DNA of 64,000 nucleotides from Rickettsiales bacterium (GCA_031254335.1 JAIRUP010000011.1:9199-73198); one strand, 5' to 3'. Shown: positions 10,060 through 63,905, counted from the stretch's first letter. Notes: generated by a model from the sequence alone, not told the origin. Numbers and translations: made by a program.

Positions 10060-10061
10060 TA

Positions 10062-10090
10062 AAAAATAAAGGCCAATATTTTTTGAGTTC
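10062..10090. terminator. A/T hairpin AAAAAATA-loop-TATTTTTT between convergent genes
   Basis: Its arms match the outermost arms of the 150-nt hairpin elements (aaaaaatat...atatttttt gag) but have no interior. Confidence 0.4.
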
Positions 10091-10093
10091 TCA

Positions 10094-10813
10094 TTATCTT
10101 GCGAGCGTCCGCCTGAAGTTCAATATTTCCAACGCCTCGTCGTTCGAGATTTTCCTTTCGTATTCAAGGTGCGGCGACCAGTAGTCGCGGAAGACGCGGG
10201 TTATATAATGCTCGCCAACCTTGTCGAATTCGCCGTATCCGTTGCGCGCGTATTCCGACGCGAAGCCCGCGATTATTTCGCGCTTCGATTCATAAGTGCA
10301 TTCGTTCTCCGCGCCGTCGTGATACTTGAAGTCGACGATATACGGCTTGTTCGCAAGAGTCCCGAACCGGACGCTGTGCAATCCGCGGTTCACAACTATG
10401 TTCCGCCATTCGTATGTCCGCCGCATCCACAGCGGGTCGATGTTCAGAATGTCCAAAGTTTCCTTGTCCATGGAAACCGCTTCCGCGCCGATATATTTCA
10501 TAAGGCCGACTTCGCCGGGCTTGGCGTCGCGCTCGACCAGATTCACCTTTGCGCCGGCGCGCAAATGCAAATCCAACATGAACGGGTATCTGTCCATAAA
10601 CGGATGCGCGGTTTCCGGCAATTCGCCCAAGCCGTTGTCGCAAACGACGGCCAGCGGTTCTTTCATGTAGCCCTTGCATTCCGGGATGAAAGGATAGACA
10701 GGCCCGTCGGTTTTTATATATGAACGAACCAAATCCATCATCGGATTTTTCCTGCCGCCGAACCCAAGTCCAAACCAGCCGCCGTGTTTGCGCCCATCAA
10801 TGAATATCGGCAT
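10094..10813 (-). CDS. Hypothetical protein (no recognisable family)
   Basis: 239-aa ORF with normal composition. The opposite-strand ORFs are Arg-rich shadows. Sits 3 nt downstream of ORF 10817..11053. Confidence 0.6.
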   Translation of the reverse strand: MPIFIDGRKHGGWFGLGFGGRKNPMMDLVRSYIKTDGPVYPFIPECKGYMKEPLAVVCDNGLGELPETAHPFMDRYPFMLDLHLRAGAKVNLVERDAKPGEVGLMKYIGAEAVSMDKETLDILNIDPLWMRRTYEWRNIVVNRGLHSVRFGTLANKPYIVDFKYHDGAENECTYESKREIIAGFASEYARNGYGEFDKVGEHYITRVFRDYWSPHLEYERKISNDEALEILNFRRTLAR

Positions 10814-14333: not shown

Positions 14334-14373
14334 GCGCATTGACAGGCCGGTTCGCGTCGTCTAACATATTCGC

Positions 14374-16056: not shown

Positions 16057-16065
16057 ATTATAGCA
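16057..16065 (-). promoter_or_regulatory. Extended -10 TGCTATAAT, 6 nt upstream of ATG 16050
   Basis: Minus strand reads TTGACC-N18-TATAAT-ccttat-ATG. The TTGACC lies inside the hairpin module at 16066..16110. Confidence 0.45.
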
Positions 16066-16110
16066 TTACCTGGGTTCTCGGGTCAAGCTCGACCATGACA
16101 ATTTTTATTT
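16066..16110. repeat. Intergenic hairpin module ATTACCTGG..TCGGGTCAAGC.CGACCATGACAATTTT
   Basis: Homologous to the reverse complement of 63855..63905 and to the split copy at 598..745. Stem GGTCGAG/CTCGGG-type around a TCAAGC loop. Confidence 0.5.
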
Positions 16111-18196
16111 ATCCTATCACTAGATTTTTGGAATTGGCGTCAAGGTCTACCATTCCGCCGGGCTTCGTTTTCCCGGACAGGATAAGGTCCGCGATTTTGT
16201 CCTCTACCTCCGTCATAATCAATCGCTTCAACGGGCGCGCGCCGAATGCCGGGTCATAGCCATGCTCGGCCAGCCATTCCACCGCGCGTTTCGATGTGTG
16301 AAGCGACAGGTTTTTTTCCTGCAACCGTTTTTCCAGATTGCCCAGCTGTATTTCCACAATGTCGTCCATGACTTTGCGCGAAAGCGGCTGGAACATTATG
16401 ACTTCGTCTATTCTATTCAGAAATTCCGGGCGCAGGCTGCGTTTAAGCAACGCCATCACCCCGTCCGTATCGTTCGGGTTTTCCAGCAGCAAATCAGAAC
16501 CCAGATTGGAAGTCATTATTATAATGGTGTTGGAAAAATTCACCGTGCGGCCCTGTCCGTCCGTAAGGCGGCCGTCGTCAAGGACTTGCAGCAGCACATT
16601 GAAGACATCGCGGTGCGCCTTTTCGATTTCGTCGAACAGCACGACCTGATACGGCCTTCTCCGCACGGCTTCGGTAAGCGCGCCGCCCTGCTCGTAGCCC
16701 ACATATCCCGGAGGGCTGCCGATTAGGCGCGACACCGAATGCGGCTCCATATATTCGCTCATGTCAATCCGCACCATCGCGGAATCGTCGTCGAACAAAA
16801 GTTCCGCGACGGCCTTCACCAGCTCGGTTTTGCCGACGCCGGTCGGCCCCAAAAACATGAACGAACCCTGCGGCCGCCTGCTGTCGGACAGGCCCGCGCG
16901 ACTGCGCCGGATGGCGCGCGCGATAACGCCAAGCGCGTTGTCCTGGCCCACCACGCGCTTCGCCAGCTCGCTTTCGATTTTCAATAATTTCGACTGCTCG
17001 TCTTCCGATAATTTTTGCACGGGTATGCCGGTCCATTTGGAAATCACCTGTTCGATATGTCGCGCGCCGACGGTTTTCAGGTCTTCGGAACTGTTCTTTT
17101 CAAGCCGCGCGATTTTCGCCGTCAGCTCCGGGATTTTTCCGTTCTGCAAGCCGCCCGCCGCCGCGTAATCGCCGCGCCGAACCGCGCTTTGCATTTCGGC
17201 CTTGGCCGCGTCAAGTTCCTCTATCGCGCCCGCCAGGCCCTTCATGTTTTCGCGCTCGGTCTTCCAGGCCGCGGTCATGGCCGCCGATTCCTTTTCGATT
17301 TCCGCGATTTGCTTTTCAAGCTCGGCCAGCCGTTTTTTAGAGTCGGCGTCCTTTTCCTTTTTCAACGCTTCGCGCTCTATCTTCATTTGCGTCAGGCGGC
17401 GGTCGGTTTCATCCAGCTTTTCGGGTTTCGACGCGATAACAATGCGGACGCGGGCGGCGGCTTCGTCAATCAAGTCAATCGCCTTGTCCGGCAGGAACCT
17501 GTCCGAAATGTATCTGTCCGACAGGCGCGCCGCCGCGACCAGCGCGGCGTCCGAAATGCGCACGCCGTGATGGCCTTCGTATCTTTCTTTTAGTCCCCGC
17601 AGAATCGAAATCGTGTCTTCCACCGTCGGCTCGTCCACGAAAACGGGCTGGAAGCGGCGCGCAAGGGCAGGGTCCTTTTCGATATACTCGCGGTATTCGT
17701 CTAGCGTCGTCGCGCCCATGCAATGAAGCTCGCCCCGGGCGAGCATGGGTTTCAGCATATTGCCCGCGTCCATTGCGCCTTCGGCTTTGCCCGCGCCGAC
17801 CACCGTATGAAGCTCGTCTATGAAAAGAATTATTTTGCCGTCGGAATCTTTGACGGCGTTAAGGACGCCTTTCAGCCGTTCCTCGAATTCGCCCCTGTAT
17901 TTCGCGCCCGCCGTCATCGCGCCCAAATCAAGCGACAGGATTTTTTTGCCCAGCAGGTTTTCCGGCACATCGCCCGAGACTATGCGGCCCGCAAGGCCTT
18001 CGGCGATGGCGGTTTTTCCGACGCCCGGCTGGCCGATTAAAACGGGGTTGTTCTTGGTGCGGCGGGTCAGGACCTGAATCGCGCGCCGAACCTCGTCGTC
18101 GCGGCCGATTACCGGGTCAAGTTTTCCCTTCGCGGCAAGCGCGGTAAAGTCCGTCGTGAATTTTTCAAGCGGGTTTATATTTTCATGTTCTTCCAT
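16109..18196 (-). CDS. clpB: ClpB-type AAA+ disaggregase lacking the N-terminal domain
   Basis: About 695 aa from [14 protein letters not shown] (GAGG Shine-Dalgarno 5 nt upstream). Two Walker A motifs ([16 protein letters not shown]) and a coiled-coil M-domain. The sequence begins where NBD1 normally begins ([20 protein letters not shown]). Confidence 0.9.
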
Positions 18197-18240
18197 TTGC
18201 GCCTCGTTTTGATTTATTTTATCAAAAATACCACGCCTTA

Positions 18241-18269
18241 TAAATAGGGAACCAATCCGCCTTGTCAAG
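18241..18269 (-). promoter_or_regulatory. Sigma-32-like heat-shock promoter CTTGACA-N13-CCCTATTT upstream of clpB
   Basis: Minus strand reads cttgacaaggcggattggttccctattta, about 45 nt upstream of ATG 18196. Resembles the RpoH consensus CTTGAAA-N13-15-CCCCATnT. Confidence 0.5.
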
Positions 18270-22044: not shown

Positions 22045-22659
22045 GTGGCTATGATTCCACCGGGCTTTGTCATGTCCAGGATTTTGGCGCTTGTTTTGGC
22101 CGCCATGCTTAGCGTCGCGTTCGCCCTTTGGCTTGCTTTGGACAGCCTGTTCCCGCTATCGAAAAAGCAGATTTTCTTCATGGCCGAACAGGAGCGCTTC
22201 ATAACCGTCGCCCCTTATTTCCCGAACACCAAAAACCTTGAACAATTCAAGGAAAACTTCATTCGGCAATACATCAACGAACGGCTTAGCATTCTTCCAA
22301 ACGCCGCCGCCATGGCGCGCAGATGGGGCGCGGCGGGGCGCGTCCGCGCCTGGTCCAGCCCGGAAGTTTATCGCGAATTCTCCGCCGAACCCATGACAGC
22401 CGCCGTTTTGCAAGCGGAACCCTTTTGGTCGACCCGCATTTATTTCCTTGGAAATCCGACGCCAAGGGGCCAGGACCGCTATGCCGTCGGCATCAGAAAA
22501 ATAAGTGAATTAGACACTGGACAGACCGAGGCAAAAATCTTTACAATAATCCTTAGGTTAGAGTTCCAAAGCGACATGGTCGTCAGATGGGAAGACAGGC
22601 TTAAAAACCCATTCGGCGTAGTCGTTTCAGAATTCCGAATTGAAGAGGCATCAGAATGA
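22045..22659 (+). CDS. virB8: VirB8-like (TrbF/ComB8-type) T4SS inner-membrane protein
   Basis: One N-terminal TM helix, FIRQYINERLS-type segment, and the VirB8 signature NPFG near the C-terminus (RLKNPFGVVVSEFRI). GGGAG Shine-Dalgarno lies 6 nt before GTG 22045 (ATG 22051 is an alternative). Confidence 0.7.
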   Translation: MAMIPPGFVMSRILALVLAAMLSVAFALWLALDSLFPLSKKQIFFMAEQERFITVAPYFPNTKNLEQFKENFIRQYINERLSILPNAAAMARRWGAAGRVRAWSSPEVYREFSAEPMTAAVLQAEPFWSTRIYFLGNPTPRGQDRYAVGIRKISELDTGQTEAKIFTIILRLEFQSDMVVRWEDRLKNPFGVVVSEFRIEEASE

Positions 22660-24146
22660 AAAAAATATTCGCGCTTATCGCCTTGGCGGCCTGCTGTTTT
22701 TCGGCGCAGGTCGCTTCGGCAAATTTCGGCGTTCAGGCGGCTTGGGACAATCCCGAAGCCAACATGGCCCCCGGAAGCGTCAAGCCCGGATACGCCCAGC
22801 TTAGCTGGTCGCCCGGAACAATCCTTACCATCCGCCTGCGGAACGGAATGGTGACCATGATTAACCTTCCCGAGGGCGAGGAAATCGCGACCGCGGACAT
22901 CGGAAACAGCGGCCTGTTCGAAATACCCGACAACCTTCAAGGCAAACGCTCGTTCATGGTTACACCCATGCCCGACAACCAAGGGTCCGACACAAACCTG
23001 ATTGTCGTCGGACGGTCCGGCAACAAGTATGTGTTCTATCTGCGCTCGGAACCCGCGAACTCTTCCGAAATCACTTATTCGCAGGTCGATATTTCAGTCG
23101 AGGGCCAGCGCGGCGCGCTGGGCGCGGCGCGGAACGGCGGCGGCATGGCCTCGCTTACCAGCAAGCCCGTTTCCAAGGGCGGTGTCAGTTTCGACGGCGA
23201 CGATTACAGCTGGATTAAAAGCATGAAAATCGACCCGTCCGAATTCCGCTTCGACCTGGACATCTTCGTCCCGAACCCGGACGACTATGTCATCGCGCCC
23301 GAACGCGTTTGGCGCGACAGGATTTTCACCTATATCGATTTCGGCGACAAGGTAATCGCAATGACCCAGCGGCCAGTCGTCAGCGTTCTTATCGAGGGCG
23401 GCGAGTCCCCGGTCGGATTCCGAACCGACGGACCCGACGGACGGCTGCTGATTGTCGAAGCCGTCGGCGACATGGTTCTTCGCTCCGGCCAACGCATAGT
23501 CTGCATCAAGAAACGCGCGAAACCGTTCCTGATTTCCAACAGCGCGCAGGTCATGGCTTTGGCCGAGGCCAATGTCGTCAGCCGCATGAACGCCGGAATG
23601 TCATTCAACAGTTCGGTCTATGGCGGCGTGCCGATGGGCGACATGGGAATTGGCATGGGCGGATTCGACAATTCATGGCAGGGCGGCGGAATGGGAATGA
23701 TGCCCGCGAACATGATGTATGGCGACCCTTCGATGATGGACACGGGAAGCAACAATGTATTCATGCCGGGCGGCGGCTCCGCTCCGCGCGTGACGGCGGG
23801 CGCGTATCTGCCCAACCGGGACATCCCCATTGTTTCAAGCAACCAAAAGGGCGTTGCGGTGGAACTGCAATCGGATACTTCGGTGAAAGCACTGAACGAT
23901 TATTGGAACAAGCTGCTTGCGAAGTTCTCGTCCGACACCGGCCAGGGAATTCTCGCGCCGTATGCTTCCAAGGTGTTTTTCGCGGTTGACGAGCAGGGAG
24001 TCGGCTCGCTCGGGACCGGCACGGCGACCGGGCGGCTGTATCGCCTTCGCATAGGGCCGATGTCCGGGATAGACGAGGCGCAGACGCTTTGCAATCAGCT
24101 TGCCAAATTCCAAGGCACCGCGTGCAATGTCGTCCGAATACAATAA
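22656..24146 (+). CDS. virB9: VirB9-like (TrbG/ComB9-type) protein with Gly/Met-rich linker and C-terminal SPOR domain
   Basis: Signal peptide; N-domain (ILTIRLRNGMVTMINLPEGEEI..NLIVVGRSGNKYVFYL); C-domain (PERVWRDRIFTYIDFGD..VVSVLIEGGESPVGFR..GRLLIVEAVGDMVLRSG). The last ~98 aa have the SPOR pattern (LYRLRIGPMSGIDEAQTLCNQL). ATGA overlap with the virB8-like gene. Confidence 0.78.
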   Translation: MKKIFALIALAACCFSAQVASANFGVQAAWDNPEANMAPGSVKPGYAQLSWSPGTILTIRLRNGMVTMINLPEGEEIATADIGNSGLFEIPDNLQGKRSFMVTPMPDNQGSDTNLIVVGRSGNKYVFYLRSEPANSSEITYSQVDISVEGQRGALGAARNGGGMASLTSKPVSKGGVSFDGDDYSWIKSMKIDPSEFRFDLDIFVPNPDDYVIAPERVWRDRIFTYIDFGDKVIAMTQRPVVSVLIEGGESPVGFRTDGPDGRLLIVEAVGDMVLRSGQRIVCIKKRAKPFLISNSAQVMALAEANVVSRMNAGMSFNSSVYGGVPMGDMGIGMGGFDNSWQGGGMGMMPANMMYGDPSMMDTGSNNVFMPGGGSAPRVTAGAYLPNRDIPIVSSNQKGVAVELQSDTSVKALNDYWNKLLAKFSSDTGQGILAPYASKVFFAVDEQGVGSLGTGTATGRLYRLRIGPMSGIDEAQTLCNQLAKFQGTACNVVRIQ

Positions 24147-24152
24147 GGAGGG

Positions 24153-24311
24153 ACAAAAAATCCAAACTCGGTTTTTCGTTTTCGGATTAAATCCCCGAAT
24201 GACACATCGAAAAACCACCCGTCGCGGCGGCGTTACAGGCCAGACGCCGGGTGGTTTTTCTTGGTCCTCGACGATTTCCTCTCGAAAACGCGACCTCGCT
24301 AGGATTTTTTG
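24153..24311 (+). repeat. Extended hairpin element E1 (~150 nt) plus T-tract, between the virB9-like and virB10-like genes
   Basis: Outer arms AAAAAATCC/GGATTTTTT, conserved blocks TTTTCGTTTTCGG and CTCGAAAACGCGA, central 13-bp stem GAAAAACCACCCG/CGGGTGGTTTTTC, then TTTTTTGAG. Confidence 0.65.
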
Positions 24312-24335
24312 AGTTATTTATAAGGCAAGGCAGAA

Positions 24336-26666
24336 TTGAGCAAGATAACGCAATATTTTCAGAATGTAAAAAAGTCCAGTCCGGCTTTGATGCGCTGGGC
24401 GCTGCTTGGCATCGCCGCCATGCTGCTTGTCATATTCATTTTCGTTATATTGCCCGGGACGAAAAATCCGCAGGGGACGCCATCCAATACCGCCTCGAAC
24501 ATAACCGCCAGGCCGGAATCCGCGACGCTTGCGGGAACGGTCGGACAGGAAACCAAGGTCGCAATCGAAATTTCTTCCGCCAATGAAATCGAGATTTTCG
24601 ATGTTCGTTTGGAATCCGTGGACAGCGGCCTTAAAATGAACAATACATGCGCCAGCCTTCAACGAATATCGAAAGACATCCCGTGCCAAGTCAATTTGAC
24701 ATGGACGCCCGCGTCCGAAACAGTCGGCAGGTCCGCGAAGGTTCTTATCGAATACGGCGCGGTCGGCGCGCCGAAAGACGCGGCGATTACGCACGCGATT
24801 TTGGTTTCCATGAACGCGGATGCAAAGGAAGAAGTAATAATAGAAGAAAAATTTTCAGAATCCAAACCGTCGGAAGAAGATATTATCGCGGACTTCTTGA
24901 AGGACGATTCCCCCGCGCCTGTTCAGAATGAAGAATCATTCGAAGACGATTATGCCGACGACGATTTTTCGGACGACGGCCTTTCGGGCGGCTATGATTA
25001 CGACGACGGCGCGGCTTTGACATTCGACGATTCCATCGTTCCGGACGACGGCGACGCGTGCTATCGCTTCGCTTTCGTCGGATACAATGTGTCCGGGCAA
25101 AAGGCCGGATGGATTCGCCCGCACAAAGGCCAATATCTTTTCCATCCGTTTTCCGACACCAAATGCAAAAAGCCGACCGGCATATATAATATGGACACCG
25201 GCTTCATACACGACATCAAGGACCGCTCGAAGAAAATCGGCTCGGATGCCGAACGGGTCCGCGACGCCCGGACGCTTCGCCGCAATATCCAAGTCCCAGA
25301 GCTTAGCAATCCGCCGCAGCAAAAGCAGGTGAATCGCGCGCAGCAATTGACGGGCGACCTTCCCGCCGCCGCGGGCGGCCATGTAAGTTTGGTTTCCACA
25401 TCGCCGGAACGAAGCGAGCTTGTGCCGTCTTCAAAGAGCGGAAACGACGCCATCATTTCTTCCGCAAAACCGTATGACCGCAGGTATGTCCTTCGCCAGT
25501 TCAAGCCCATTCCCGCCACAATAGTAAGCGACATTCGCGTGGACCAAAGGATTCACGACCTTCCCATCGTCGCAACCGTGGAACGGAATGTCTATTCCGA
25601 CAACGAGCGCACCATAATAGTTCCCGTCGGAACAATGCTGCTTGGATATGTCGACGACACCGTCAATCTTCCCGGACCTTATAAAACCATCGGCCGCATA
25701 ACCGTCTGCTGGTATCAGATGATACGGCCCGACGGCGTCGAATTCCATTTGGGCAACGATTGCAGCGTTTATGCCGCCGACAGCCAAGGGCGCGTAGGCG
25801 TGCCGGGCCGCGGCTCGACCGATTACTTGGAAGAAATAGTCATTCCGATGGCGGCGGGTTTGGTTCCCGCGGCGGTCAATCTTGTCGCGCCGATTTCAGA
25901 CCGCTTTGTAAATCAAATCGACCTTAACAACAACACCGTCACCCAAAGCGGGCAGATGCGTTCGAGCGAACTTGCAAAGCAGGAAATCATAAAGTCGTGG
26001 GACAAGGTTTCGCAACGCCTTTTCATGGACATGATGGACAACCTGACGCCGCCTTTCACGATTCCCGCCGGCACGCGCATAACCGTCCTTTCAAGCAAGG
26101 ACCTGATAGTCAACTGGGACAGCGACAAACTTGGCGACGGCAACGCCTATACCCCCAAACCGACCAAGCGCGGGACGCCTCCCAATTTCTCGCAGAACAA
26201 GGAAGAGCTTGTCGGGCAGGTAAGGTCGACGACGGTCGGTCCCGACGGCAAGATTATCTATGACACGCAAAGCCCGTTCCTTCAATCCTTTATGAACCAG
26301 GCCAACCAATACCAATCCCAATATCAGGCCCAGCAGGGCGCGTATTGGAACCAGCAGAACACCGCCGCCGCGCAGGGCAATGTCGACGAATGCGGCAACA
26401 ATAGGTATCTTAACCTGCGGTATATTCCGGGAACCTGCACCATAATGAGCCCGTCGGCCAAGGCCCCGGCACCCGTTCAGGCAATGGAAGACGCGATGTA
26501 TGGCGGAAACCTTACGGCCGGGCCGGGCGGACTTATGTGCGACGACGGAACGCCGCCGGATACATACGGCTGCTGCCCAAGCGCGGGCGAAGAGTTCGTG
26601 AACGAAGACGGCGGGATTTGCTGTTTGATTTCCAGCCCCGACGAATGCTTCCCGCCCCTAATGTAA
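24336..26666 (+). CDS. virB10: VirB10-like (TrbI/ComB10-type) protein with long N-terminal extension and Cys-rich C-terminal tail
   Basis: 776 aa. TM helix near aa 20-40 and an acidic low-complexity region. TrbI/VirB10 core (IPATIVSDIRVD..IVATVERNVYSD..IIVPVGTMLLGY..RPDGVEFHL..DSQGRVGVPG). The last ~90 aa contain 9 Cys. Confidence 0.75.
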   Translation: MSKITQYFQNVKKSSPALMRWALLGIAAMLLVIFIFVILPGTKNPQGTPSNTASNITARPESATLAGTVGQETKVAIEISSANEIEIFDVRLESVDSGLKMNNTCASLQRISKDIPCQVNLTWTPASETVGRSAKVLIEYGAVGAPKDAAITHAILVSMNADAKEEVIIEEKFSESKPSEEDIIADFLKDDSPAPVQNEESFEDDYADDDFSDDGLSGGYDYDDGAALTFDDSIVPDDGDACYRFAFVGYNVSGQKAGWIRPHKGQYLFHPFSDTKCKKPTGIYNMDTGFIHDIKDRSKKIGSDAERVRDARTLRRNIQVPELSNPPQQKQVNRAQQLTGDLPAAAGGHVSLVSTSPERSELVPSSKSGNDAIISSAKPYDRRYVLRQFKPIPATIVSDIRVDQRIHDLPIVATVERNVYSDNERTIIVPVGTMLLGYVDDTVNLPGPYKTIGRITVCWYQMIRPDGVEFHLGNDCSVYAADSQGRVGVPGRGSTDYLEEIVIPMAAGLVPAAVNLVAPISDRFVNQIDLNNNTVTQSGQMRSSELAKQEIIKSWDKVSQRLFMDMMDNLTPPFTIPAGTRITVLSSKDLIVNWDSDKLGDGNAYTPKPTKRGTPPNFSQNKEELVGQVRSTTVGPDGKIIYDTQSPFLQSFMNQANQYQSQYQAQQGAYWNQQNTAAAQGNVDECGNNRYLNLRYIPGTCTIMSPSAKAPAPVQAMEDAMYGGNLTAGPGGLMCDDGTPPDTYGCCPSAGEEFVNEDGGICCLISSPDECFPPLM

Positions 26667-26820
26667 AAAAATGAAAGTGCAATGTTTCAAAATCGGTCTA
26701 TATCGCCCATTATCTTCGCAAAACCGACGCCTCGCGGACGCATCAGTCCAGACTCGGGTCGGTTTTGCTGGATTCCGGGCAATCTATCCTCGATTTTGCG
26801 ATTGCACTAACATTTTTTTG
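26667..26820 (+). repeat. Extended hairpin element E2 plus T-tract, directly after the virB10-like stop
   Basis: Arms AAAAAAATG/CATTTTTTT, GTGCAAT/ATTGCAC and CAAAATCGG/CCTCGATTTTG, central GCAAAACCGAC/GTCGGTTTTGC. Compensatory changes relative to E3. Confidence 0.7.
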
Positions 26821-26851
26821 AACTTATAATATATAAGAAGGAGTGCTTGAA

Positions 26852-28885: not shown

Positions 28886-29755
28886 ATGAGCGACGCAATT
28901 TTCATAGACATCGGGTCAAGCACCATCAAGGTTTATTCCAAATCCGCGGACGGCGCGCTGGATTTGACCGACGAAAAATCGATTCTTTTCAAGGACGGAT
29001 TCACGCAGGACGCCGGCGTCGCGGCGCACAATATAGACGCGCTGCTGGAATACTTGGAACAATGGCGCGGGCGGAATGTCCGAACTTTCGCAACGGGAAT
29101 TTGGCGCGAGCTCCCGGCCGCGCAGGCGAAAAGCCTTGGCGAAAACAGCCCCGTCGGATTCAATATAATTTCGCACGACGACGAGGCGCGCTATCTGAAA
29201 CAGGCCGCGGACCTGCCGTTCGCCGGCAAGAAGGCAATGGTTATAAACATGGGCGGCAAAACCACAGAAATCGTTTCCGTTCTGCCAAACTTTGATACCA
29301 AGACGCAGCTCTTAAAAATCGGCGTCGCGGACTTGCTGAACCAATTCCCGAATGTGAACGAGGAAATCTCCGGCGCGAGCATCGAAGAGATGGAAAAATT
29401 CGTCCGCGACAAACTGGACGCCGAACAATTCGACACCGATTACGACTTCGCGCTTTTCACGGGCGAGCTGCGGTTCGAGAAGCTGTCCGGCTATCCATTG
29501 GAACCGAACGCGCAGTTTTCCGAAGCCAACCATCCGTTCCAAGTTTCAATCGACGGCTTCATCATTGGCACGCGCAGGATATTCTTCGACATGACGATGT
29601 CGGAACTTCGCGCGCTTATGCCGAAAAATCCAAACTGGATGAGCGGCGCGCGGCCTGGCGCGGTTCTTCCGCTTGCGATTTTCAACCGCGCGAAAATCAA
29701 AGCCATCGTTCCCAGCGACTTGAATCTTATCAACGGAGTTGTCAAAGATTTCTAA
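28886..29755 (+). CDS. ASKHA-superfamily (Ppx/GppA- or actin-like ATPase) protein
   Basis: 289 aa. The N-terminal phosphate-1 motif FIDIGSSTIKVY and a later NMGGKTTE resemble Ppx/GppA-type nucleotide-binding folds. Confidence 0.5.
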   Translation: MSDAIFIDIGSSTIKVYSKSADGALDLTDEKSILFKDGFTQDAGVAAHNIDALLEYLEQWRGRNVRTFATGIWRELPAAQAKSLGENSPVGFNIISHDDEARYLKQAADLPFAGKKAMVINMGGKTTEIVSVLPNFDTKTQLLKIGVADLLNQFPNVNEEISGASIEEMEKFVRDKLDAEQFDTDYDFALFTGELRFEKLSGYPLEPNAQFSEANHPFQVSIDGFIIGTRRIFFDMTMSELRALMPKNPNWMSGARPGAVLPLAIFNRAKIKAIVPSDLNLINGVVKDF

Positions 29756-32700
29756 AATCTGTAAGATATTCCGGCGCGGGCGTTGAAGCCGTTTATCTCG
29801 TCGCTTGACCGCAAGGAAAACTTCGCGTCCAAAGTCAAAGATTCGCGGACGCTTCCGACCATTCCGAAACCATATTCGAAATACGAGCCGACCATTCCCA
29901 ATTTCGGCTGCTCCATTTCGCCGATTCTGTTTTTGGAGTCGCCGGACAGGTTCCAATTATAAAGCCCGGAAAGAAAAACATTCACCGATTCCATCCCGAA
30001 TATCAGCGCAAGGCCCGGCGCGACATTCGCGCCGTCCACATAGCTTGAATACATTTCTATATCGCCGTAATTCGACATCCATTCGCGCCCGCCGAAGTGG
30101 TTGTAAGACGCCATAAAATTCGGCTGGACAATCGTGTATCTCATCACGCGCATGTCATAGGCGATTTTTCCCGCCGCGCCGACGAACCAGTTGTCGACGG
30201 AATCCTTCGCGCCCCCGACATCAATCTCGGTGTTATAGAATCCGTTATACGCCATAAGCGCGCCGATGAATTTCCCGTTCGTCCAGGTGCTTTGGATTCC
30301 GATTTGCCCGCCGTTCTGCGTCATTTCGACGCCGCTCCATCTCTGTTTGCCGCCGTTATAGGCCATGTAGAGCGTCGGCACCCATCGCCAGCTTTTTTCC
30401 CCGCCAATCAGGACGGACGCGGTGTCCAGGCCCGCGATTATTCCGTATAAATTGCTGTCCGCCTCGTCCAAGCCGCCGCCAAGTTTCAGTTTTTCCGCGC
30501 CGCCATAGGCCTTGACCCAGACGCCCTTCTGGTGTTCCTGGAACTGCCACGGCGCATACTTGCACATCAGGCATTCGTCGCTGTCAAGGAACACATGGTC
30601 GAACATGACGCCCGCGACAAGACCCTGCGACAGCATCATCGCGTTCGTCGATACCCCGCCGCGCAAGGCCTGCGGATTTCCGCCTTGCAGCCGAAGCTCG
30701 TAATTTCCGCTTCCAAGCGACACAAGCGAATATTCCCCCGCCGGAGTCATTATGGAATCCGCCGACGCCGCGAACATAATCGCGGGGTCGTAGTTCGGCG
30801 AGCTCATTATATTGAACGGCACGACCGCCGAGCGCGGAGAATTCAGCAAATTGATTTCATCCAGCATGACAACCGCGTCCATCGCGTAAATGTCGGCTAT
30901 GCCCGACGCCGGGTCGCCGTTCACTATCAATTCGCCCGGCGCCGCCGTTCCGCTGAAAACAAACTGGTCGGAGCGCGCGTTCCGCGCGTCCAAATCCACC
31001 GAGAATTTCGCAATGCTGTTCACCGGATTGTCCAAGACCGAAAAGATTGCGAACTTGCCCGCGAAATTGTGCGTTTGGATTGCTCCGTCCATCGAATTCA
31101 CAAGCGCGTTGTCGCCCATGACAAGCGCGCCGCTGGTTGCGATGTATGTTCCGCCGCCCGCGCCGACATTAAGGGCGACATTGTTTATGAACAGCGTGGA
31201 ATCCGACAGGACCAAGTCGCCGCCCGTAAGTCCGCCGCTTGGCGCAAGGCCTTTGACATAGGCGACCGCGTTGTTGCCGATTACCGTGACTCCGCCCGTT
31301 TTTTGCAGCACATCCGAATAGACGGCAAGCCCCGCGCCCCGGGCGACAATATAACCGTCGCTTTGATTGACTTTGCCGAATGTTCCGCCCGACGACGCGG
31401 GCATGGAATCGGTCGGATTCAGCCAAATCGCGCCGCCCGCGATGTCCAGGAATCCCGTCGAATACAGATTAATCGTCGCCGATTCCCCGATTATGTCGCC
31501 CGGATTCAACTTCAAGCCGCCGTATATGTTGACGGTGCCGCCGGTTATGTTCATGACCGCGCTGTCCAGCTTGTCGGCGTTCAGATGCCAGTTCAGGATT
31601 CCGCTTTGGATGTTGTTCGTTCCGCCGAAGAACATTCCGTAAGCATCGACGATTCCATTGGTCTGCAAGAATTCGCCGAGATAGTTCGAGTTGTCCGCCG
31701 ATTCCGCCAATATGAAATCCGCCGGACTATGCTTGGCGATTAGCGCGCCGGCCGTTCCCGCAATGCCGCTGCCGAAGAACAGAATCCCGCCGGTGGAAAT
31801 CAAGGTTATCGTTCCCGCGTTGTATATGTCGTTCGCGCCGGTGCTGTCGGCATTCCCGCTGAAAATCATGTTCGCGCCCTGCGCGACGCTTATGTCCAGC
31901 TGGCTTCCCGCCGCGTTGTAAATCGCGCCGCCAAGGCCGCCCGCCGTATTGCCCGTGAAGTTCATGTCGTGGTCGCCCGAATATATCGCCGTGGTTTCGG
32001 ACGAACTTGACGAGTCGTGGTAAATCGCGCCGCCGTTCCCGCCCGCGCTGTTTCCGACGAAGGAACCGCCGTGCTTGTTTATAGTCCCCGTATTGTAAAT
32101 CGCGCCGCCGTCGCCGCCCGCGGAATTATTCGTGTAATCCAGATTGGTGCTTGTCGTGCTTCCCGCCGCGATGTTCGCCGCGCCGCCGTTCCCGGTCGAG
32201 CTGTTGTTTTGCAGCGCAAGGTTCGAAAGCGTCGCGCTTGAACTTGCGTTGTCCATATAGATGACCGCGCCGCCGCGGCCGGAAGAATCCAAGGCGTCCC
32301 GAACGGTCAAATCCTGCAATGTGAAATATGTATCGTCGTTCTCGATGTCGAACAGGGACTGCCCGGTTTCGCCGTCCGTCGAATTCAATCCCGACAGAAC
32401 GGCCGTTCTTGTTCCGGCAACCGCGCCATGGACCGAGAATGTCCCGTCGGCCATAACTCCCAAATCCCCGTCGTTCTGATAAATTTCCGCCGCGCCGATT
32501 TGCCACGAGCGCGCGACCGCGTCCGACATCCCGGCCGCCGCCGCATTCGAATCAAGCTCGTTCACATCGTTCAGCACAAGGACAAGGGACGACGGATTGT
32601 TCGGAACGCTAATCATTCCCGTCGATGTCCCGCCCGGATTCGTAGTCGTCGAGGCCGTGCCGCCGTTAGGGTCGGTCGTGCTTGAACCGCCGCCGTTCGG

Positions 32701-35496
32701 GTCCGTGGTCGTAGTGGTCGAGCCGCCGCCGTTCGGGTCGGTCGTGTTTATCGTCGTGTCGCCGCCGGGATTCGTGTTTATCGTTGTGCCGCCGCCGCTT
32801 GGCGGGACTATGGTCGTGGTCGTTCCGCCGTTCCCATCCGGGCCCACATCGACCGTCGTGCCGTCGGGCAGGGACGCGCTTCCGCTGCCGCCCGCCGGGA
32901 CATCGACGACCGTTCCGCCCGGCTCGCTTGTTATGGTGCTGTTTCCGTCCGGGTCGGTCACAACCGTTATCGTGTTGCCCGCGCCGTCGTCCGTCGTGCT
33001 TGCGGAGCTTCCGTCGGGATTCGTCGTCGTAGTCGTCGTGCTTCCGTCCGGGTTCGTCGTGGTCGTAGTCGCGCCGCCGCTCGGGTCGGTCGTCGTAGTC
33101 GTGGTTCCGCCGCCCGGATTGTTCGTGGTCGTCGTCGTGCCGCCGCCGGAATCCACGGCGGACGAAGAGCTTCCCGAACCGCCCCCGCCGCTGGGCACGC
33201 TGTCAAGCTGGACATACTGGTTGTTCACGGTCGTAATCGTGTATGTTCCGTTGGAAGTCGCGACGAACTGCGACAAGCCGTTTTGGAAATCCAGGACATC
33301 GCCGTATATTATGCGCATGGTTCCGGTAATAAGGCCGTCCGCGTCATTCACATAAATTTTCCCCAGATAATTTATCGTGCCTCCGCCGTTCGCGACATTC
33401 AGCGAGTCCGCCGAAAGCCCGCCCTGGTTATTTCCGATTTTGAACGAAAGCGACGCGGTCGCGTCGGCCCCAAGATTCAAGAAATTATACTGCTGGTAAT
33501 TCGCCGACGAATTCGCAAGGTCTATAAGCGAGCCGTTGTAAAAACCGTAAGCCGTGCCGCCGGTATAATCGGCGCTTCCCAATATGACGCCGCTATTATT
33601 GAAGCCGATAGAGTTCGACTGCCCGTTCGATATGTCGTTTTGCAGATTGTAAAGCGCGCCGCCCGGCATGCCCGCATTGAATCCGACCGTCGCGCCGCTT
33701 CCCATGAAATTTATGCCCGCGTCCGCGATGGCCGCGGCCCGGCTTATGGAAATCCTGTTGCTGGACACGGCCGTGAAGTTCATGGCCGAATCCGACAGCA
33801 TATCGGCGTTGAAATAGAATGTATCCTGGCTGCTGCTTACATTCGCCGTGCCGCCGATATTGTTTTGCCCGCCGAACATAAGGCCCTGAACATTGACGAC
33901 GGCCCCGGCCGCATTGTTGAAGACTCCCGCGAAGCCCGTGCTTTGACTGGCCGCGTTCAGGTTCAGGGTGGTGCCGGATTCCTGATTTATGGTTCCTATG
34001 CCCGCGATTCCGTCGTTTATGTTCACGGTGCCGCCGCCGGTTATGTTTATGGCGGCGGTCGCCGAATCCTGGTATATTCCGGGGCCGTTCGCAAAACCCG
34101 CCGCATAATTGTTCAGGAAATTTATTCCGCTTGCGCCGGTATTCAGATTAATCACTCCGTTCCCGGAATTGTAAATCGCACCGCCGAACAACGCGCCGTT
34201 CGCGTCGAACAATGTCCCGTCCGCTATGTTCACGACGCTTGTCCCCGGATAATTGTTCCCGGAAGTATTGTAAATCGCGCCGCCGCCACCGCTTGCATAG
34301 TTGTTCGTGAAGCTGCCTGAAATATTTACGACTATATCGGCCTGGCCCGCCTGGATATTGTTGTAAATCGCGCCGCCGAATCCGGCCGACTTGTTGCTGT
34401 CGAACGGCCCCGATATATCGAATGTTATATTTCCGCCGTAAGGCGAATACTGGTCGCCGACCGCATTGTAAATCGCGCCGCCCTGCGCCGCTACATTGGA
34501 ATAGAACGAGCCGACCAAATTCACATTAACGGCGGTGTTTCCGCCGTTTATTTCGGTCGCAACCGCGCCGCCGAACGCGGCCTGGTTCTGTGTGAAGACG
34601 CCGCCCGCAATATCGAAATTGTTCGCGGCGGGGGCGTTTCCATTCAGGACTCCGTTATAAACCGCGCCGCCCATGCCGGCCGCATAATTCTGGTAATAGG
34701 TATAGCCCTGTGCGCTGAAATCGTTCGACACGCCCGCGCCGCCCGCGTTATTGCCCATGAAATAAATCGCGCCGCCGTTCTGGGACGCCCTGTTCATCGC
34801 CAGATAATGCCCGTTCGTCCCGGTGTCGTCCACAACCGCAAATGTTCCGCCGCCGTTCTGCGAATTGTTCGACGCCATATAGACCGCGCCGCCGCTTGCC
34901 GCGGCATTGTTTGCGAAGTCGTTGTCGGTCAGAACATACGAATTGTCGCCGCCGCTTTGCATTTGGGAATTCACGGACACCGCCGCGCCGTTCGCAGACG
35001 ACGAGTTGTTATAGAAATAAGTTCCCGCGACCGTAAAATTATGATTGCCAATACCGTTTCCCGCAAATGCAACCGCGCCGTTCGCCGCGCCATAGACCGT
35101 AAGATTCGAGATGCTCGCGCTTATGTCGTTATTCCAGCCGGGCGCGAAGGCAAGGGTATATCCCCCCATAATCAGCGCGGTTCCGTCCGGCGTTCCTCCA
35201 TAACTGTTTATGCTTAGGGCGGGGCCGGAAAACGGATTCAGCGCGTTCGCCAGAATTATTCCGTAATCGCCTTTGGAATCGATGGCGGTTCCGACGACCG
35301 TTATCGAGCCATCGCCGCCGTTCCACGCGTCCGCAAAGTCCGCGGAAGTCGCGGCATCCGCCGCGTCCGCCGCGCGGACCAAGCAAAAACATACCATGCC
35401 CGACAATAATACGGCCGAGAATCTCATGATTAATAATATAAAAAAACGGCGCGGAATTTTATAGGTAGCTATTCTCAGATTAATTTCCCTTTCCAT
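29752..35496 (-). CDS. Autotransporter adhesin with polymorphic-membrane-protein (PMP) repeats
   Basis: 1914 aa. Dozens of GGA(I/V)Y(N) and FxxN motifs. Central Thr/Gly/Asn/Pro-rich block (TTTTTNPDG-like repeats). C-terminal beta-barrel ending ISYRF. The signal peptide probably starts at Met-24 (35427). Confidence 0.85.
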   Translation of the reverse strand: MEREINLRIATYKIPRRFFILLIMRFSAVLLSGMVCFCLVRAADAADAATSADFADAWNGGDGSITVVGTAIDSKGDYGIILANALNPFSGPALSINSYGGTPDGTALIMGGYTLAFAPGWNNDISASISNLTVYGAANGAVAFAGNGIGNHNFTVAGTYFYNNSSSANGAAVSVNSQMQSGGDNSYVLTDNDFANNAAASGGAVYMASNNSQNGGGTFAVVDDTGTNGHYLAMNRASQNGGAIYFMGNNAGGAGVSNDFSAQGYTYYQNYAAGMGGAVYNGVLNGNAPAANNFDIAGGVFTQNQAAFGGAVATEINGGNTAVNVNLVGSFYSNVAAQGGAIYNAVGDQYSPYGGNITFDISGPFDSNKSAGFGGAIYNNIQAGQADIVVNISGSFTNNYASGGGGAIYNTSGNNYPGTSVVNIADGTLFDANGALFGGAIYNSGNGVINLNTGASGINFLNNYAAGFANGPGIYQDSATAAINITGGGTVNINDGIAGIGTINQESGTTLNLNAASQSTGFAGVFNNAAGAVVNVQGLMFGGQNNIGGTANVSSSQDTFYFNADMLSDSAMNFTAVSSNRISISRAAAIADAGINFMGSGATVGFNAGMPGGALYNLQNDISNGQSNSIGFNNSGVILGSADYTGGTAYGFYNGSLIDLANSSANYQQYNFLNLGADATASLSFKIGNNQGGLSADSLNVANGGGTINYLGKIYVNDADGLITGTMRIIYGDVLDFQNGLSQFVATSNGTYTITTVNNQYVQLDSVPSGGGGSGSSSSAVDSGGGTTTTTNNPGGGTTTTTTDPSGGATTTTTNPDGSTTTTTTNPDGSSASTTDDGAGNTITVVTDPDGNSTITSEPGGTVVDVPAGGSGSASLPDGTTVDVGPDGNGGTTTTIVPPSGGGTTINTNPGGDTTINTTDPNGGGSTTTTTDPNGGGSSTTDPNGGTASTTTNPGGTSTGMISVPNNPSSLVLVLNDVNELDSNAAAAGMSDAVARSWQIGAAEIYQNDGDLGVMADGTFSVHGAVAGTRTAVLSGLNSTDGETGQSLFDIENDDTYFTLQDLTVRDALDSSGRGGAVIYMDNASSSATLSNLALQNNSSTGNGGAANIAAGSTTSTNLDYTNNSAGGDGGAIYNTGTINKHGGSFVGNSAGGNGGAIYHDSSSSSETTAIYSGDHDMNFTGNTAGGLGGAIYNAAGSQLDISVAQGANMIFSGNADSTGANDIYNAGTITLISTGGILFFGSGIAGTAGALIAKHSPADFILAESADNSNYLGEFLQTNGIVDAYGMFFGGTNNIQSGILNWHLNADKLDSAVMNITGGTVNIYGGLKLNPGDIIGESATINLYSTGFLDIAGGAIWLNPTDSMPASSGGTFGKVNQSDGYIVARGAGLAVYSDVLQKTGGVTVIGNNAVAYVKGLAPSGGLTGGDLVLSDSTLFINNVALNVGAGGGTYIATSGALVMGDNALVNSMDGAIQTHNFAGKFAIFSVLDNPVNSIAKFSVDLDARNARSDQFVFSGTAAPGELIVNGDPASGIADIYAMDAVVMLDEINLLNSPRSAVVPFNIMSSPNYDPAIMFAASADSIMTPAGEYSLVSLGSGNYELRLQGGNPQALRGGVSTNAMMLSQGLVAGVMFDHVFLDSDECLMCKYAPWQFQEHQKGVWVKAYGGAEKLKLGGGLDEADSNLYGIIAGLDTASVLIGGEKSWRWVPTLYMAYNGGKQRWSGVEMTQNGGQIGIQSTWTNGKFIGALMAYNGFYNTEIDVGGAKDSVDNWFVGAAGKIAYDMRVMRYTIVQPNFMASYNHFGGREWMSNYGDIEMYSSYVDGANVAPGLALIFGMESVNVFLSGLYNWNLSGDSKNRIGEMEQPKLGMVGSYFEYGFGMVGSVRESLTLDAKFSLRSSDEINGFNARAGISYRF

Positions 35497-39255: not shown

Positions 39256-39363
39256 TGAGGTTTGTCCTTATGTTATTGAATTTATTGTCAATAATAAACT
39301 AAAAATAACATAATTCAAGAAATATTATATTGATAATAATTCCCAGTTTGATATAATACTTTC

Positions 39364-49044: not shown

Positions 49045-50634
49045 ATGATAAAGAACATTTACGAGGTTCTGGCGGGCGCGTGCCAATCCAACGCCGCCAA
49101 CACTTTCTTTGTGCGTCCGCAAAAAACCTATGCCCAGCTGCTCGGCATGGTCCAGAAACGCGCCGTGAAACTGGCGAAGAAATACGGCGTCAAAAAAGGC
49201 GACACCGTCGCCTTGCTTTCCGGCACCAGCGCGGAATTTTTGGTGTCCTATTTCGCCATACTGTCGCAGGGCGCGCGCGCGCTGATGCTTGACACCGGCC
49301 TATCCAAGGCCGAACACGAAAGCATGATGAAAATCGCCGAGTGCAAGCTGGCCCTTGCGCAGAAAAGCTATTTTATCGAGGGCAGCGAAACCAAGATGGC
49401 GGACATCGAGGAACCCGATTCCGAAAGCGAATCCGAATTCCGCGCCGCCGATGTGGTCCGCGAGGACATCGCCCAGATTTCCTTCACATCCGGCACGACC
49501 GGCGTGCCGAAAATCGTGCCGCTTACGCACGGCAACCTTGTGTCCCTGGCCGAGGGCGCGCTGATTTACGGCGCGGTCATAAAGCCGGGCTTCATGTTCT
49601 ATGGATTCCTGCCGCTTTACCATATATACGGCGTCGTGATAAACATAATCGCGCCGATTGTGCTTAAATGCTCGCTTCTGATTCAGCCGGTCTTGAATCC
49701 AAAGGAATTCTTGAAGGACTTCGCCGAATACAAGCCGCATGTCATCCCGGCCGTGCCGCGCATTTGGGAGGGATTCTATAAAAAAATCATTTCCAGCGCG
49801 AAGGAAAAGAAGAAATACACCATTATGCGCGTCGTTCTTGCCGCGCAGGGATTCTTGAAACTTGTCGGCCTTGGCTCTCTCGTCAAAAAGGTGAAGGCCC
49901 CGGTGCATGAAATCTTCGGCGGGCGCGTCAGGCTCCTTGTTTCCGCGGGCGCGACATTGAAGCCGTCCGTTCGGAAATTCTTCGAGCGTTTGGACTTCGT
50001 CGTCGGCGACTGCTATGGCCTGACGGAAACGACCGGCCCCGGGAACTTCAACTTCAAGTTCAAGATGGAGGACGGCAGGACGAATTGGGCCGGGCCGCTT
50101 CCGGGAAACAAAATCAAAATCCACAATCCCGACAAGAGCGGCGTCGGCGAAATCTGGATTAAGGGCAGCCTTGTCATGAAGGGCTATCTGAACAATCCGG
50201 CCGCGAACGCCGAGAGCTTCGAGGACGGATGGTTCAAGTCCGGCGACCTTGGCGTCATCGATTCCAAGGGCCGCCTGACGGTCAAGGGCAGACGGAAGCA
50301 GATTATCGTTCTGGACAGCGGCAAGAATGTCTATCCCGACGAGTTGGAGGATTTGTATCTGCAAAACGACGACATCCTTGCGGCCGCCGTGTTCGAGCGC
50401 GTGATTAATGGCAAGACCGTCGCATACGCGGTGTTCCAGGTCGCGCCCGGGACGACGCTTGCGAAAGTGTCGCAGCTGATTAAGGTGTCGAACCTTATGA
50501 TTGCGCCGTATAAGTGGGTCAGCCATTTCGCGATTACGGAGGACGAGCTTCCGCAGACATCGGCGAAGAAGATAAAGCACTTCGAGATAAAGAAGATGCT
50601 TGACGCCGGCGCCTTCCCGCTGCGCGAGGAATAA
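49045..50634 (+). CDS. AMP-dependent synthetase/ligase (long-chain acyl-CoA synthetase-like)
   Basis: 529 aa. AMP-binding motif SFTSGTTGVPK, YGLTET, GWFKSGDLG, and the terminal SAKKIKH lysine. Confidence 0.85.
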   Translation: MIKNIYEVLAGACQSNAANTFFVRPQKTYAQLLGMVQKRAVKLAKKYGVKKGDTVALLSGTSAEFLVSYFAILSQGARALMLDTGLSKAEHESMMKIAECKLALAQKSYFIEGSETKMADIEEPDSESESEFRAADVVREDIAQISFTSGTTGVPKIVPLTHGNLVSLAEGALIYGAVIKPGFMFYGFLPLYHIYGVVINIIAPIVLKCSLLIQPVLNPKEFLKDFAEYKPHVIPAVPRIWEGFYKKIISSAKEKKKYTIMRVVLAAQGFLKLVGLGSLVKKVKAPVHEIFGGRVRLLVSAGATLKPSVRKFFERLDFVVGDCYGLTETTGPGNFNFKFKMEDGRTNWAGPLPGNKIKIHNPDKSGVGEIWIKGSLVMKGYLNNPAANAESFEDGWFKSGDLGVIDSKGRLTVKGRRKQIIVLDSGKNVYPDELEDLYLQNDDILAAAVFERVINGKTVAYAVFQVAPGTTLAKVSQLIKVSNLMIAPYKWVSHFAITEDELPQTSAKKIKHFEIKKMLDAGAFPLREE

Positions 50635-50664
50635 TTTTATAAATACCCGCATCGTTTATAAAGC

Positions 50665-63695: not shown

Positions 63696-63698
63696 GGA

Positions 63699-63851
63699 CA
63701 AAAAATATAAGCGCAATTTTTCGTTTTCGGTCTAAATCGCCCACTACCGGCGGGAAACCGGCTTCGCAGGAGCGGCAAGCCTAGCGCGCGCCGGTTTCCC
63801 TTGGTATTGAACGATTTATCCTCGAAAACGCGATTGCGCTAATATTTTTTG
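63699..63851 (+). repeat. Extended hairpin element E3 plus T-tract, directly after the PBP1A stop
   Basis: Arms AAAAAATAT/ATATTTTTT, GCGCAAT/ATTGCGC and CGTTTTCGG/CCTCGAAAACG, central GGGAAACCGG/CCGGTTTCCC, then TTTTTTGAG. Confidence 0.7.
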
Positions 63852-63854
63852 AGT

Positions 63855-63905
63855 CTTATTAAAATTGTCATGGTCGGGCTTGACCCGACCATCCAGGTAA
63901 TAATC
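63855..63905. repeat. Intergenic hairpin module (reverse orientation copy)
   Basis: The reverse complement reads attattacctggATGGTCGGGtcaagCCCGACCATgacaatttt, homologous to 16066..16110. Confidence 0.5.

Follow-up and report, generated by a model that had tools for sequence, protein, structure and literature searches.

Does a long hairpin that recurs directly behind the stop codons of several genes belong to those genes, as a structure kept for their benefit, or is it a piece of mobile DNA that settles there? We addressed this question for three elements, named E1, E2 and E3, found in a stretch of 64,000 nt (hereafter, the window) from a Rickettsiales bacterium (GCA_031254335.1, JAIRUP010000011.1:9199-73198) whose sequence originates from a termite gut metagenome. 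The three elements follow the genes for VirB9/CagX (22656-24146), VirB10/TrbI (24336-26666) and a class A penicillin-binding protein (PBP; 61821-63695), respectively. Our results indicate that they are probably members of a new family of non-coding, non-autonomous palindromic mobile repeats, hosted by a small clade of termite-gut alphaproteobacteria that are labelled Rickettsiales.

The three elements are present where the original prediction had placed them, and they align over their full length of ~170 nt as end-to-end homologues with a mean column identity of 76%. Their 3′ ends had been set about 10 nt too short, as shown by a conserved AT-rich tail, TTATTTATWA, that follows TTTTTTGAG; in E1, the left end GACAAAAAAT and the right end ATTTTTTGAG are followed by the tail TTATTTATAA. 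The + strand of each element adopts a single long hairpin fold, with energies of -64 to -78 kcal/mol (z = -4.9 to -8.8 against mononucleotide shuffles, computed with our own script), and a right-arm pattern derived from E1-E3 has three matches in the window versus none in 100 shuffles. All the compensatory changes initially quoted for the arms were found again (GCGCAAT/ATTGCGC versus GTGCAAT/ATTGCAC, and CGTTTTCGG/CCTCGAAAACG versus CAAAATCGG/CCTCGATTTTG). The central stems do pair perfectly, over 11-12 bp, but they do not differ completely as had been claimed, since they are alignable homologues with compensated changes. Besides the full copies, the window holds an internally deleted one that abuts the TGA (10057-10059) of the open reading frame (ORF) 9688-10059, a 129-codon frame, and sits in a 34-nt gap ahead of a convergent gene; ∼13 of 14 left-end bases and all 14 right-end bases agree with an L006-type copy (see below). 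Two left-end-like matches at 60672 and 42296 turned out to be coincidences in coding sequence, one of them at the N-terminus of an ABC ATPase.

To look at the family as a whole, copies were gathered by collection scans and from loci fetched around VirB9 homologues (designated by L numbers). A covariance model (R1), built from 16 copies and applied to the window and to related contigs of termite-gut metagenome-assembled genomes (MAGs; ~215 kb, 11 sequence sources), yielded a census of 25 non-redundant copies. These are distributed over the MAG 'Rickettsiales bacterium Coa324_bin6' (L004, L006), a contig with a VirB9 80% identical to that of the window (L007) and one organism of the metagenome Ga0123356, with a VirB9 of 74% identity (L009, L017, L019, L023-L025). 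A 70% relative, L012, displays one full copy together with left-end remnants, and R1 returned no copies in ~45 kb from three more distant relatives. In the sequencing run that contains the window, contig depth is 21 in unique flanking sequence and 300-1000 across the element, where 103 contigs map; this suggests roughly 15-45 copies in the metagenome at similar depth. Several contigs break off inside copies, such as L001 (Logan contig SRR14710927_359566) and the ends of L023 and L024. Since short-read contigs end in mid-hairpin, the elements fragment the assemblies of termite-gut MAGs and account for contig breaks in them. The host MAGs have a G+C content of 54%.

Searches in broader collections gave no relative of the family. 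Rfam at gathering thresholds reported only tRNA in the window, a permissive Rfam scan of E3 gave chance-level matches only, and blastn produced no match against plasmids, nor against 5,426 E. coli genomes at E <= 1e-3. The pattern initially used for the collections, CTCGANNNNGCGANNNCNCTAN{2,4}TTTTTTGA, was too strict: it retrieved two true copies and three chance matches in Microcoleus, and fits none of five copies later found independently.

That these repeats behave as mobile DNA is visible at several levels. In the Ga0123356 organism, copies at unrelated loci can be nearly identical (99% for L009:220 versus L025:4280, 90% for L019 versus L023:6273 and 85% for another pair), to be compared with a family mean of 62%, which shows that the family is multi-copy with recent duplication within a genome. 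Sites also differ in occupancy. The gene end orthologous to that of L025:4452-6038 is empty in the window (at 50634), and L025 carries there a full copy plus two right-end remnants. In the same vein, a full copy is found at the virB9-virB10 junction of the window, of L007 and of L009, L012 shows a left-end remnant there, and the junction measures only 4 nt, about 20 nt and 82 nt in the more distant relatives L026, L028 and L027, respectively; the element is thus an insertion into a once compact operon junction.

Copies have also been rearranged through nested insertions, gains, losses, truncations and recombination with each other. L023:4546 is a 96-nt form devoid of the centre, with matching right ends found elsewhere, and L024:1-137 is a mosaic in which the centre of L009:220 is joined to another outer right arm. 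At three places, a foreign insertion of 135 nt interrupts right-arm remnants between TCGATTT and GCGAC. Moreover, full copies of the Ga0123356 organism are often trailed by one to three partial copies with an intact 3′ end (...GCGA....TTTTTTGAGTTATTTATTA), which are truncated at variable points 46-90 nt from that end and whose subfamilies differ from that of the full copy upstream. We infer from these rows that new copies came in repeatedly on the stop-codon side of sites already occupied, and that the resident copy lost its 5′ part. Possible routes include direct-repeat recombination after self-targeted insertion, adjacent deletion, or a 3′-primed copying stalled in the hairpin. As a unit of ~170 bp without long ORF, the element is non-coding, small (<300 bp) and multi-copy, as for a MITE (miniature inverted-repeat transposable element).

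A few observations on remnants and related repeats can be added. The ~135-nt insert (L023 9770-9650 and 11710-11590 on the minus strand; L009 16365-16500) contains an opposite-orientation mini-hairpin that resembles the ends of the element (ACAAAAAATTCGCGTTATTAGCGGATTTTTTGAT). L012 shows the left end alone at 11535-11620 and 14200-14350, where other genomes hold the element, and these left ends are followed by a different family of short GC-rich hairpin repeats (e.g. CACCCCGCCACCCTTGGCGGGG, CCCCGTCCGGCTACGCCGGAC). In the Ga0123356 organism, the conserved motif TCTGCGCTTCACGTGAAACAKGGAATAAGTAKTTGAA comes after two different element sites (L023 7650-7610 and 6225-6190, minus strand). Finally, the OBLI01 contigs L018, L020, L021 and L022 contain a ~380-bp repeat with a distant variant of the hairpin inside it (e.g. 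L022 5820-5984). This variant displays the same inner motifs TTTTCGGTCTAAATC...GATTTATCCTCGAAA, and the ~380-bp repeat at L020 3933-4126 has 9 nt (TTAGCACAG) in place of the ~170-nt hairpin.

What is preserved in the family is examined best through its paired positions. We aligned 16 copies with MAFFT and took the structure from an RNAalifold prediction, not from a fit by hand. Standard pairs make up 94.3% of 719 cells in this alignment; the share drops to 75% in shuffles and to 34-56% if partners are displaced by 1-3 columns. The whole unit forms one hairpin of ~45 bp, in which 35 of the 45 pairs have changed on both sides, and its covariation score was reached by none of 500 shuffles; the covariation of the arms is thus a signal that does not dissolve upon proper alignment. 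No pair of helix 2 (6 bp) is invariant, the inner stem occurs in versions as different as CGTTTTCG/CGAAAACG, CAAAATCG/CGATTTTG, CAATTTCG/CGAAATTG, CGAATTCG/CGAATTCG and CAAATCG/CGATTTG, and the outer A-run stem covaries too (e.g. AAAACCCAT/ATGGGTTTT). The unpaired motifs TTTTTC, GGTCTATA, (A/T)TCTATCC and GCGA are nearly invariant. This association of variable stems with conserved loops argues for the recognition of a fold and against neutral symmetrisation alone. The terminal inverted repeats are (TAAG)GACAAAAAAT and ATTTTTTGAG(T)TTA, and complementarity runs through the whole unit. The folded part spans ~150 nt; it closes with 9 bp of A·T pairing to the A-run, and a run of T6-7 lies 3′ of the helix. 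The centre of the element resembles a small bidirectional terminator, and a terminator scan flagged only the central sub-hairpin of E1 and nothing for E3. In the right tail, scanning and inspection for promoters revealed TATAAT-like boxes, with no consistent -35 box or spacing.

The two strands of the hairpin are not equivalent. Among the cells of these mutually related copies, 134 are double changes from one Watson-Crick pair to another, versus a single one-sided (G·U) change. Intermediates between C-G and T-A appear as C·A on the gene-sense (+) strand in 16 cells, versus one variable G·U (alignment A3; one invariant G·U is also present, beside an internal loop), and the corresponding numbers are 21 and 5 in the model-fitted alignment of the 25 copies (A4). 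Because a C·A on the top strand is a G·U on the bottom one, the bottom strand folds more stably. Indeed, the strand complementary to the upstream mRNA folds better in all 21 full copies, by 5.7 kcal/mol on average, and this advantage holds with RNA as well as DNA parameters. Judged from the sequences, the substitution pattern is the reverse of what a sense-strand RNA hairpin under selection would be expected to show.

Position and orientation are strongly non-random. For the 25 copies, the 16 nt upstream of the A-run were searched for stop codons, and the length of the frame closed by each was determined. The view that the element always starts at a stop codon is correct for the window, but not for the whole family: 18 copies lie 1-11 nt past the stop of a co-oriented frame of 122-845 codons or running off the locus, the upstream frame has only 51-71 codons for four copies, two (L023:7686 and 9784) are antisense to both adjacent genes, and one, located upstream of a divergent dnaK-like gene in L004, has no stop. 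All 25 copies are outside long ORFs, and they are preferentially found 0-3 nt behind the stop codon of a co-oriented gene. The offsets of the stop from the A-run are discrete: -1, -4 (a TGA overlapping TGAC), -7 (the TAA of TAAGGAC) and -10/-11, this last class corresponding to a native stop directly followed by TAAGGAC or CAAGGAC. As protein C-termini are alike with or without the element (RIQ* for VirB9, PPLM*/PPMF* for VirB10), it abuts the native stop and does not replace coding sequence. TAAGGAC is also found in two copies that lie behind no long ORF. The best-defined boundary is provided by the 99%-identical pair L009:220/L025:4280, which diverges just upstream of GAC (GTAAG versus GGAAT). 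On the basis of this pair, the mobile unit probably begins at GAC, with WTAAG as a preferred flank.

Orientation appears to follow genes and not the replication strand. In L025, both copies are behind the two minority-strand genes and none is behind the majority + strand ORFs. The GC skew at third codon positions, with the element strand as reference, has a negative sign in contigs of the window's genome and of Coa324_bin6 and a positive one in those of the Ga0123356 genome; with a sign so inconsistent among contigs, the replication strand was discarded as the main determinant of orientation. Most after-stop copies have a co-directional gene close downstream, with three consecutive genes in L024, so that copies should be largely transcribed through, which argues against efficient termination. 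Likewise, E1 sits inside the virB8-virB9-virB10 gene string, with the TTG start of virB10 at 24336, and element-less relatives have a gap of 4-82 nt; an efficient terminator is therefore unlikely there. Downstream of E2, a small ORF starts with an ATG at 26852.

The virB9, virB10 and PBP ends are occupied in both the window and L009, and the virB9 and virB10 ends also in L007, even though the PBP gene directly follows virB10 in L009 and is 35 kb away from it in the window. For none of these eight copies is the positional orthologue the nearest relative, and orthologous pairs share 57-69% identity, versus the family mean of 62%. Either copies have been replaced, a process that the rows of remnants at three L009 sites show to occur, or their divergence is saturated; long retention at orthologous ends for host benefit is possible.

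Together, the evidence for movement and for a preserved fold makes a MITE-like family with structural constraints, which was one of the options initially envisaged, the best explanation. The element preserved would be a folded single strand recognised by its mover, in the manner of REPINs and RAYT or of the ends of IS200/IS605-type elements, and not a duplex transposase-binding sequence. The strand that tolerates wobble would be the complement of the mRNA of the upstream gene. Insertion would strongly prefer stop-codon-proximal sequence (left-flank consensus WTAAG-GAC) and resident copies, and new copies would displace older ones, whose 3′ ends stay behind. More tentatively, as most copies lie between co-directional and closely spaced genes, they may be co-transcribed, in which case their role would be no more than that of a leaky 3′ hairpin (protection of mRNA ends, attenuation or RNase III target) and not that of the gene's dedicated terminator.

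Several points weigh against such a mobile repeat. No transposase was detected in the 10 window ORFs scanned against Pfam, and no longer autonomous element with the same ends was present in the ~215 kb of related sequence. A target-site duplication could not be established. A TA on both sides (TA-AGGAC...GAGTCT-TA) fits many copies, but not those of L025, L007a and L024:2358; the empty/filled pair of the window and L025 is too diverged to read a duplication, and the OBLI01 pair points to a 9-nt replacement rather than a duplication. An ATAAGG duplication was rejected: it flanks the virB9-virB10 copies on both sides in two genomes, other copies are without it, and it is probably a stop codon plus a Shine-Dalgarno sequence. 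Since the copies are mutually related, the cell counts of the covariation analysis are not independent events. Moreover, the occupation of three orthologous gene ends in the three closer genomes also fits a retained host function. Conversion of every wobble and C·A cell to a Watson-Crick pair leaves the minus strand ahead by 2.6 kcal/mol (16 of 21 copies); this remainder, about half of the asymmetry, is explained by conserved internal loops, in which pyrimidines predominate on the sense strand and purines on the opposite one. A wobble-tolerant bottom strand also fits poorly with a left-end target on the top strand. Finally, no RNA sequencing runs were found for the window or L009, and the window is contained in only one metagenome, of DNA.

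Among the rivals, the original prediction leaned towards a sense-strand RNA selected by the host, i.e. an elaborate intrinsic terminator, a stabiliser of the 3′ untranslated region or a 3′-derived small RNA kept for the upstream gene. The strong covariation, the T6 run after the helix and the terminator-like centre would suit such an RNA, as would the sense orientation and stop-codon abutment of 18 of the 25 copies and the occupation of the same three gene ends in three genomes although the PBP gene moved relative to virB10. We nevertheless consider it unlikely and find no direct support for this preference. G·U pairs are almost absent, with one-sided changes of this kind outnumbered 134 to 1 by double changes; sense-strand intermediates appear as C·A, a combination that RNA does not pair, and it is this strand that folds less well in 21 of 21 copies; the whole element is not flagged by the terminator scan, and E1 and many others are flanked by closely packed co-directional genes (with three such cases in succession in L024). 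Furthermore, positional orthologues (0.57-0.69 identity) are no closer than random members (0.62), no copies are present in the ~45 kb of the three more distant relatives, and the empty sites, decayed remnants and 99%-identical paralogues indicate mobile DNA. If the bottom strand is instead the functional one, it could be a convergent small RNA ending at the T-run by the stop codon or a single-stranded DNA substrate for a recombinase of HUH/Y1 or integrase type. The wobble bias towards this strand (16 versus 1 and 21 versus 5) and its higher stability in 21 of 21 copies with both parameter sets agree with this proposal, and the AT-rich tail (TAATAAATAACTC) offers -10-like sequences just upstream of the hairpin, with TTTTTTGTCC after it. 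It is still quite improbable to us, as half of the energy asymmetry is due to loop composition, no -35 element or conserved promoter was found in the tail, no Y1 transposase was seen, and orientation tracks genes and not GC skew, which is unexpected for lagging-strand targeting of single-stranded DNA.

Neutral palindromes, whose arms would be kept complementary only by symmetrisation (gene conversion or intrastrand template switching) and whose fold would be under no selection, are very unlikely. Quasi-palindrome correction is an established mutational mechanism, the mosaic copies show recombination among copies, and covariation that is only Watson-Crick with very few intermediates is what such a process would leave. 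However, it does not account for loops (TTTTTC, GGTCTATA, TCTATCC, GCGA) that are better conserved than stems, helix 2 being without any invariant pair, nor for the strong bias in position and orientation or the large excess of C·A over G·T among mismatches. Integron attC-like recombination sites marking gene cassettes share with the present family a size of ~60-150 bp, an imperfect palindrome in one orientation at gene 3′ ends, a structure kept more than the sequence and a better-folding bottom strand. Gene context and end sequences effectively refute this reading: the flanks are syntenic housekeeping and type IV secretion genes (virB8-9-10, PBP, dnaK region) and not cassettes, the ends are an A-run and a T-run without RYYYAAC/GTTRRRY core sites, and no integrase gene was present among the genes looked at.

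Coming back to the mobile repeat, a bolder version of it deserves mention, although we find it improbable. A putative recombinase would place the folded strand directly behind stop codons or resident copies, in sense orientation and with near single-nucleotide precision, as a structure-dependent 'homing' element, and would overwrite older copies, their 3′ ends being left as a fossil row. The 5′-truncated, 3′-intact remnants would also suit a copying process that begins at the 3′ end and comes to a halt in the hairpin. If true, stop-codon homing would represent a way of targeting that has not been described for bacterial MITEs or REPINs.

The closest counterparts in architecture and behaviour are REPINs, hairpin-forming pairs of REP sequences that RAYT transposases mobilise (Bertels & Rainey 2011, PMC3116915). 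Both are non-coding, dispersed, extragenic units of ~100 nt or more that fold end to end, with conserved ends, a variable middle, frequent compensatory changes and an occurrence in clusters or tandems. REPIN half-elements ('singlets') were read as defunct remnants, and a hairpin intermediate of single-stranded DNA was proposed (PMC3116915). In contrast to REPINs, the present unit is longer (~170 nt), its arms are not self-palindromic short GC-rich REPs, no GTAG/CGTC tag was seen by eye, and no RAYT gene was found in the ~215 kb of genome fragments. REPINs are also reported at random in extragenic space (PMC3116915), whereas the present copies abut stop codons. A second counterpart is SPRITE, a small AT-rich repeat with terminal inverted repeats that are simply AAAA/TTTT, for which neither target duplication nor empty site was definable and co-option as a terminator was suggested (2011, PMC3049150). 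It similarly consists of a hairpin followed by a U-rich tract near the 3′ ends of coding sequences. However, SPRITE belongs to an unrelated phylum, has an 18-bp duplex instead of a 45-bp multi-helix hairpin, and is enriched between convergent genes, unlike the present copies that are mostly between co-directional genes and 0-3 nt from the stop; this comparison is by description and not by sequence.

The enterobacterial ERIC/IRU (127 bp) are also imperfect palindromes over their whole length, found in transcribed intergenic regions and with internally deleted or expanded forms. Compensatory changes in ERIC and their long-term retention at orthologous sites of E. coli and Salmonella were reportedly described by Wilson & Sharp in 2006. 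At gene 3′ ends in Yersinia, ERIC have orientation-dependent effects on the upstream mRNA, and ERIC and Correia elements are both co-transcribed palindromes with effects through RNase E or RNase III (PMC10969869). ERIC differ from the present family by the lack of sequence match (in the 5,426 E. coli genomes) and by their taxon, and are not reported to start at a stop codon. Correia elements carry 26-bp terminal inverted repeats and a TA duplication. These Neisseria MITEs, also named NEMIS, are of ~100-200 bp (204 bp in the original description), are co-transcribed with their neighbours into an RNA duplex cut by RNase III, and may carry promoters (PMC10969869). They are mostly upstream of genes, and the TA duplication of the present family is possible but inconsistent across copies. 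Rickettsia palindromic elements form several families of ~150-bp palindromic repeats in Rickettsiales genomes (PMC10969869) and thus match in size and host order. By description, they are set apart by their in-frame location inside ORFs, where they encode a peptide, compared with 25 of 25 copies outside long ORFs here. QMITE2 of Coxiella burnetii is reportedly found for the most part in 3′ untranslated regions of ORFs (PMC10969869), a likeness in 3′ location that is one of description only. As neither REPIN traits (REP arms, RAYT) nor MITE traits (target duplication, cognate insertion sequence) are confirmed, we file the elements under small palindromic mobile repeats and under no named family. 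The family is previously undescribed, and the stop-codon abutment is its main oddity.

In practice, such hairpins should not be annotated as terminators or small RNA genes without RNA evidence. The family is also a clean data set, provided by nature, on a 45-bp hairpin whose paired stems are hypervariable and whose unpaired motifs are conserved. Three features call for an explanation, namely the sense abutment on stops within 0-3 nt, the wobble bias of the bottom strand and the rows of right-end remnants. If they reflect the insertion mechanism, they would reveal a new route by which small mobile DNA reaches harmless sites of compact symbiont genomes; were selection behind them, they would illustrate how operons such as virB8-9-10 tolerate the insertion of hairpins.

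Table 1. Copies of the palindromic repeat in the window, with the associated stop codons and an empty site.
Feature	Position	Strand	Remark
E1	24152..24323	+	Full copy in the virB9-virB10 gap; model R1 155.9 bits, E = 1.9e-27
E2	26665..26833	+	Full copy, A-run over the virB10 stop TAA; model R1 168.8 bits
E3	63697..63864	+	Full copy 1 nt past the PBP stop TAA; model R1 166.8 bits
Internally deleted copy, termini alone kept: TAAAAAATAAAGG..CCAATATTTTTTGAGTTCT	10060..10098	+	Weak R1 match, E = 0.08
virB9 stop TAA	24144..24146	+	E1 begins 5 nt further on
virB10 stop TAA	26664..26666	+	Shares bases with the start of E2
PBP gene stop TAA	63693..63695	+	Is the TAA in the left-flank consensus TAAGGACAAAAAAT of the family
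Empty site, end of ORF 49045-50634 (...GAGGAATAA/TTTTATAAATA)	50634..50660	+	No element; L025 ortholog filled

The window contains other repeats and genes. A second, smaller repeat, ATTAAAATTGTCATGGTCGGGCTTGACCCGACCATCCAGGTAAT, has a GC-rich hairpin as its core and is found at 63858-63901 (+), directly 3′ of E3, and in inverted orientation at 16065-16108. The latter copy comes right after the stop of a clpB-like gene (16109-18268, minus strand), in sense orientation to it. Contig depth over this repeat is ~2400, compared with a flanking depth of 21, so that the metagenome may contain ~100 copies of it. Two inverted copies of ~125 nt (39325-39448 and 51026-51151), 11.6 kb apart and with arms that are 80-94% complementary, contain CTTTGGCAGGAGGGTAGCGAAAGCTAC; each adjoins a small minus-strand ORF (39439-39702 and 50689-51015, the latter without Pfam match), and they may be a shared regulatory or RNA region. 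On the minus strand, a 1914-aa ORF (29752-35496) very rich in internal repeats, among them 33-nt tandem units at 32990-33180 and dispersed units containing TAAATCGCGCCGCC, looks like a large repetitive surface or secreted protein. Finally, the + strand gene at 3602-4720 encodes a Fic/DOC-domain protein (Pfam Fic and Fic_N), a possible secreted effector or toxin-antitoxin component, in a genome that also encodes a VirB-type secretion system.

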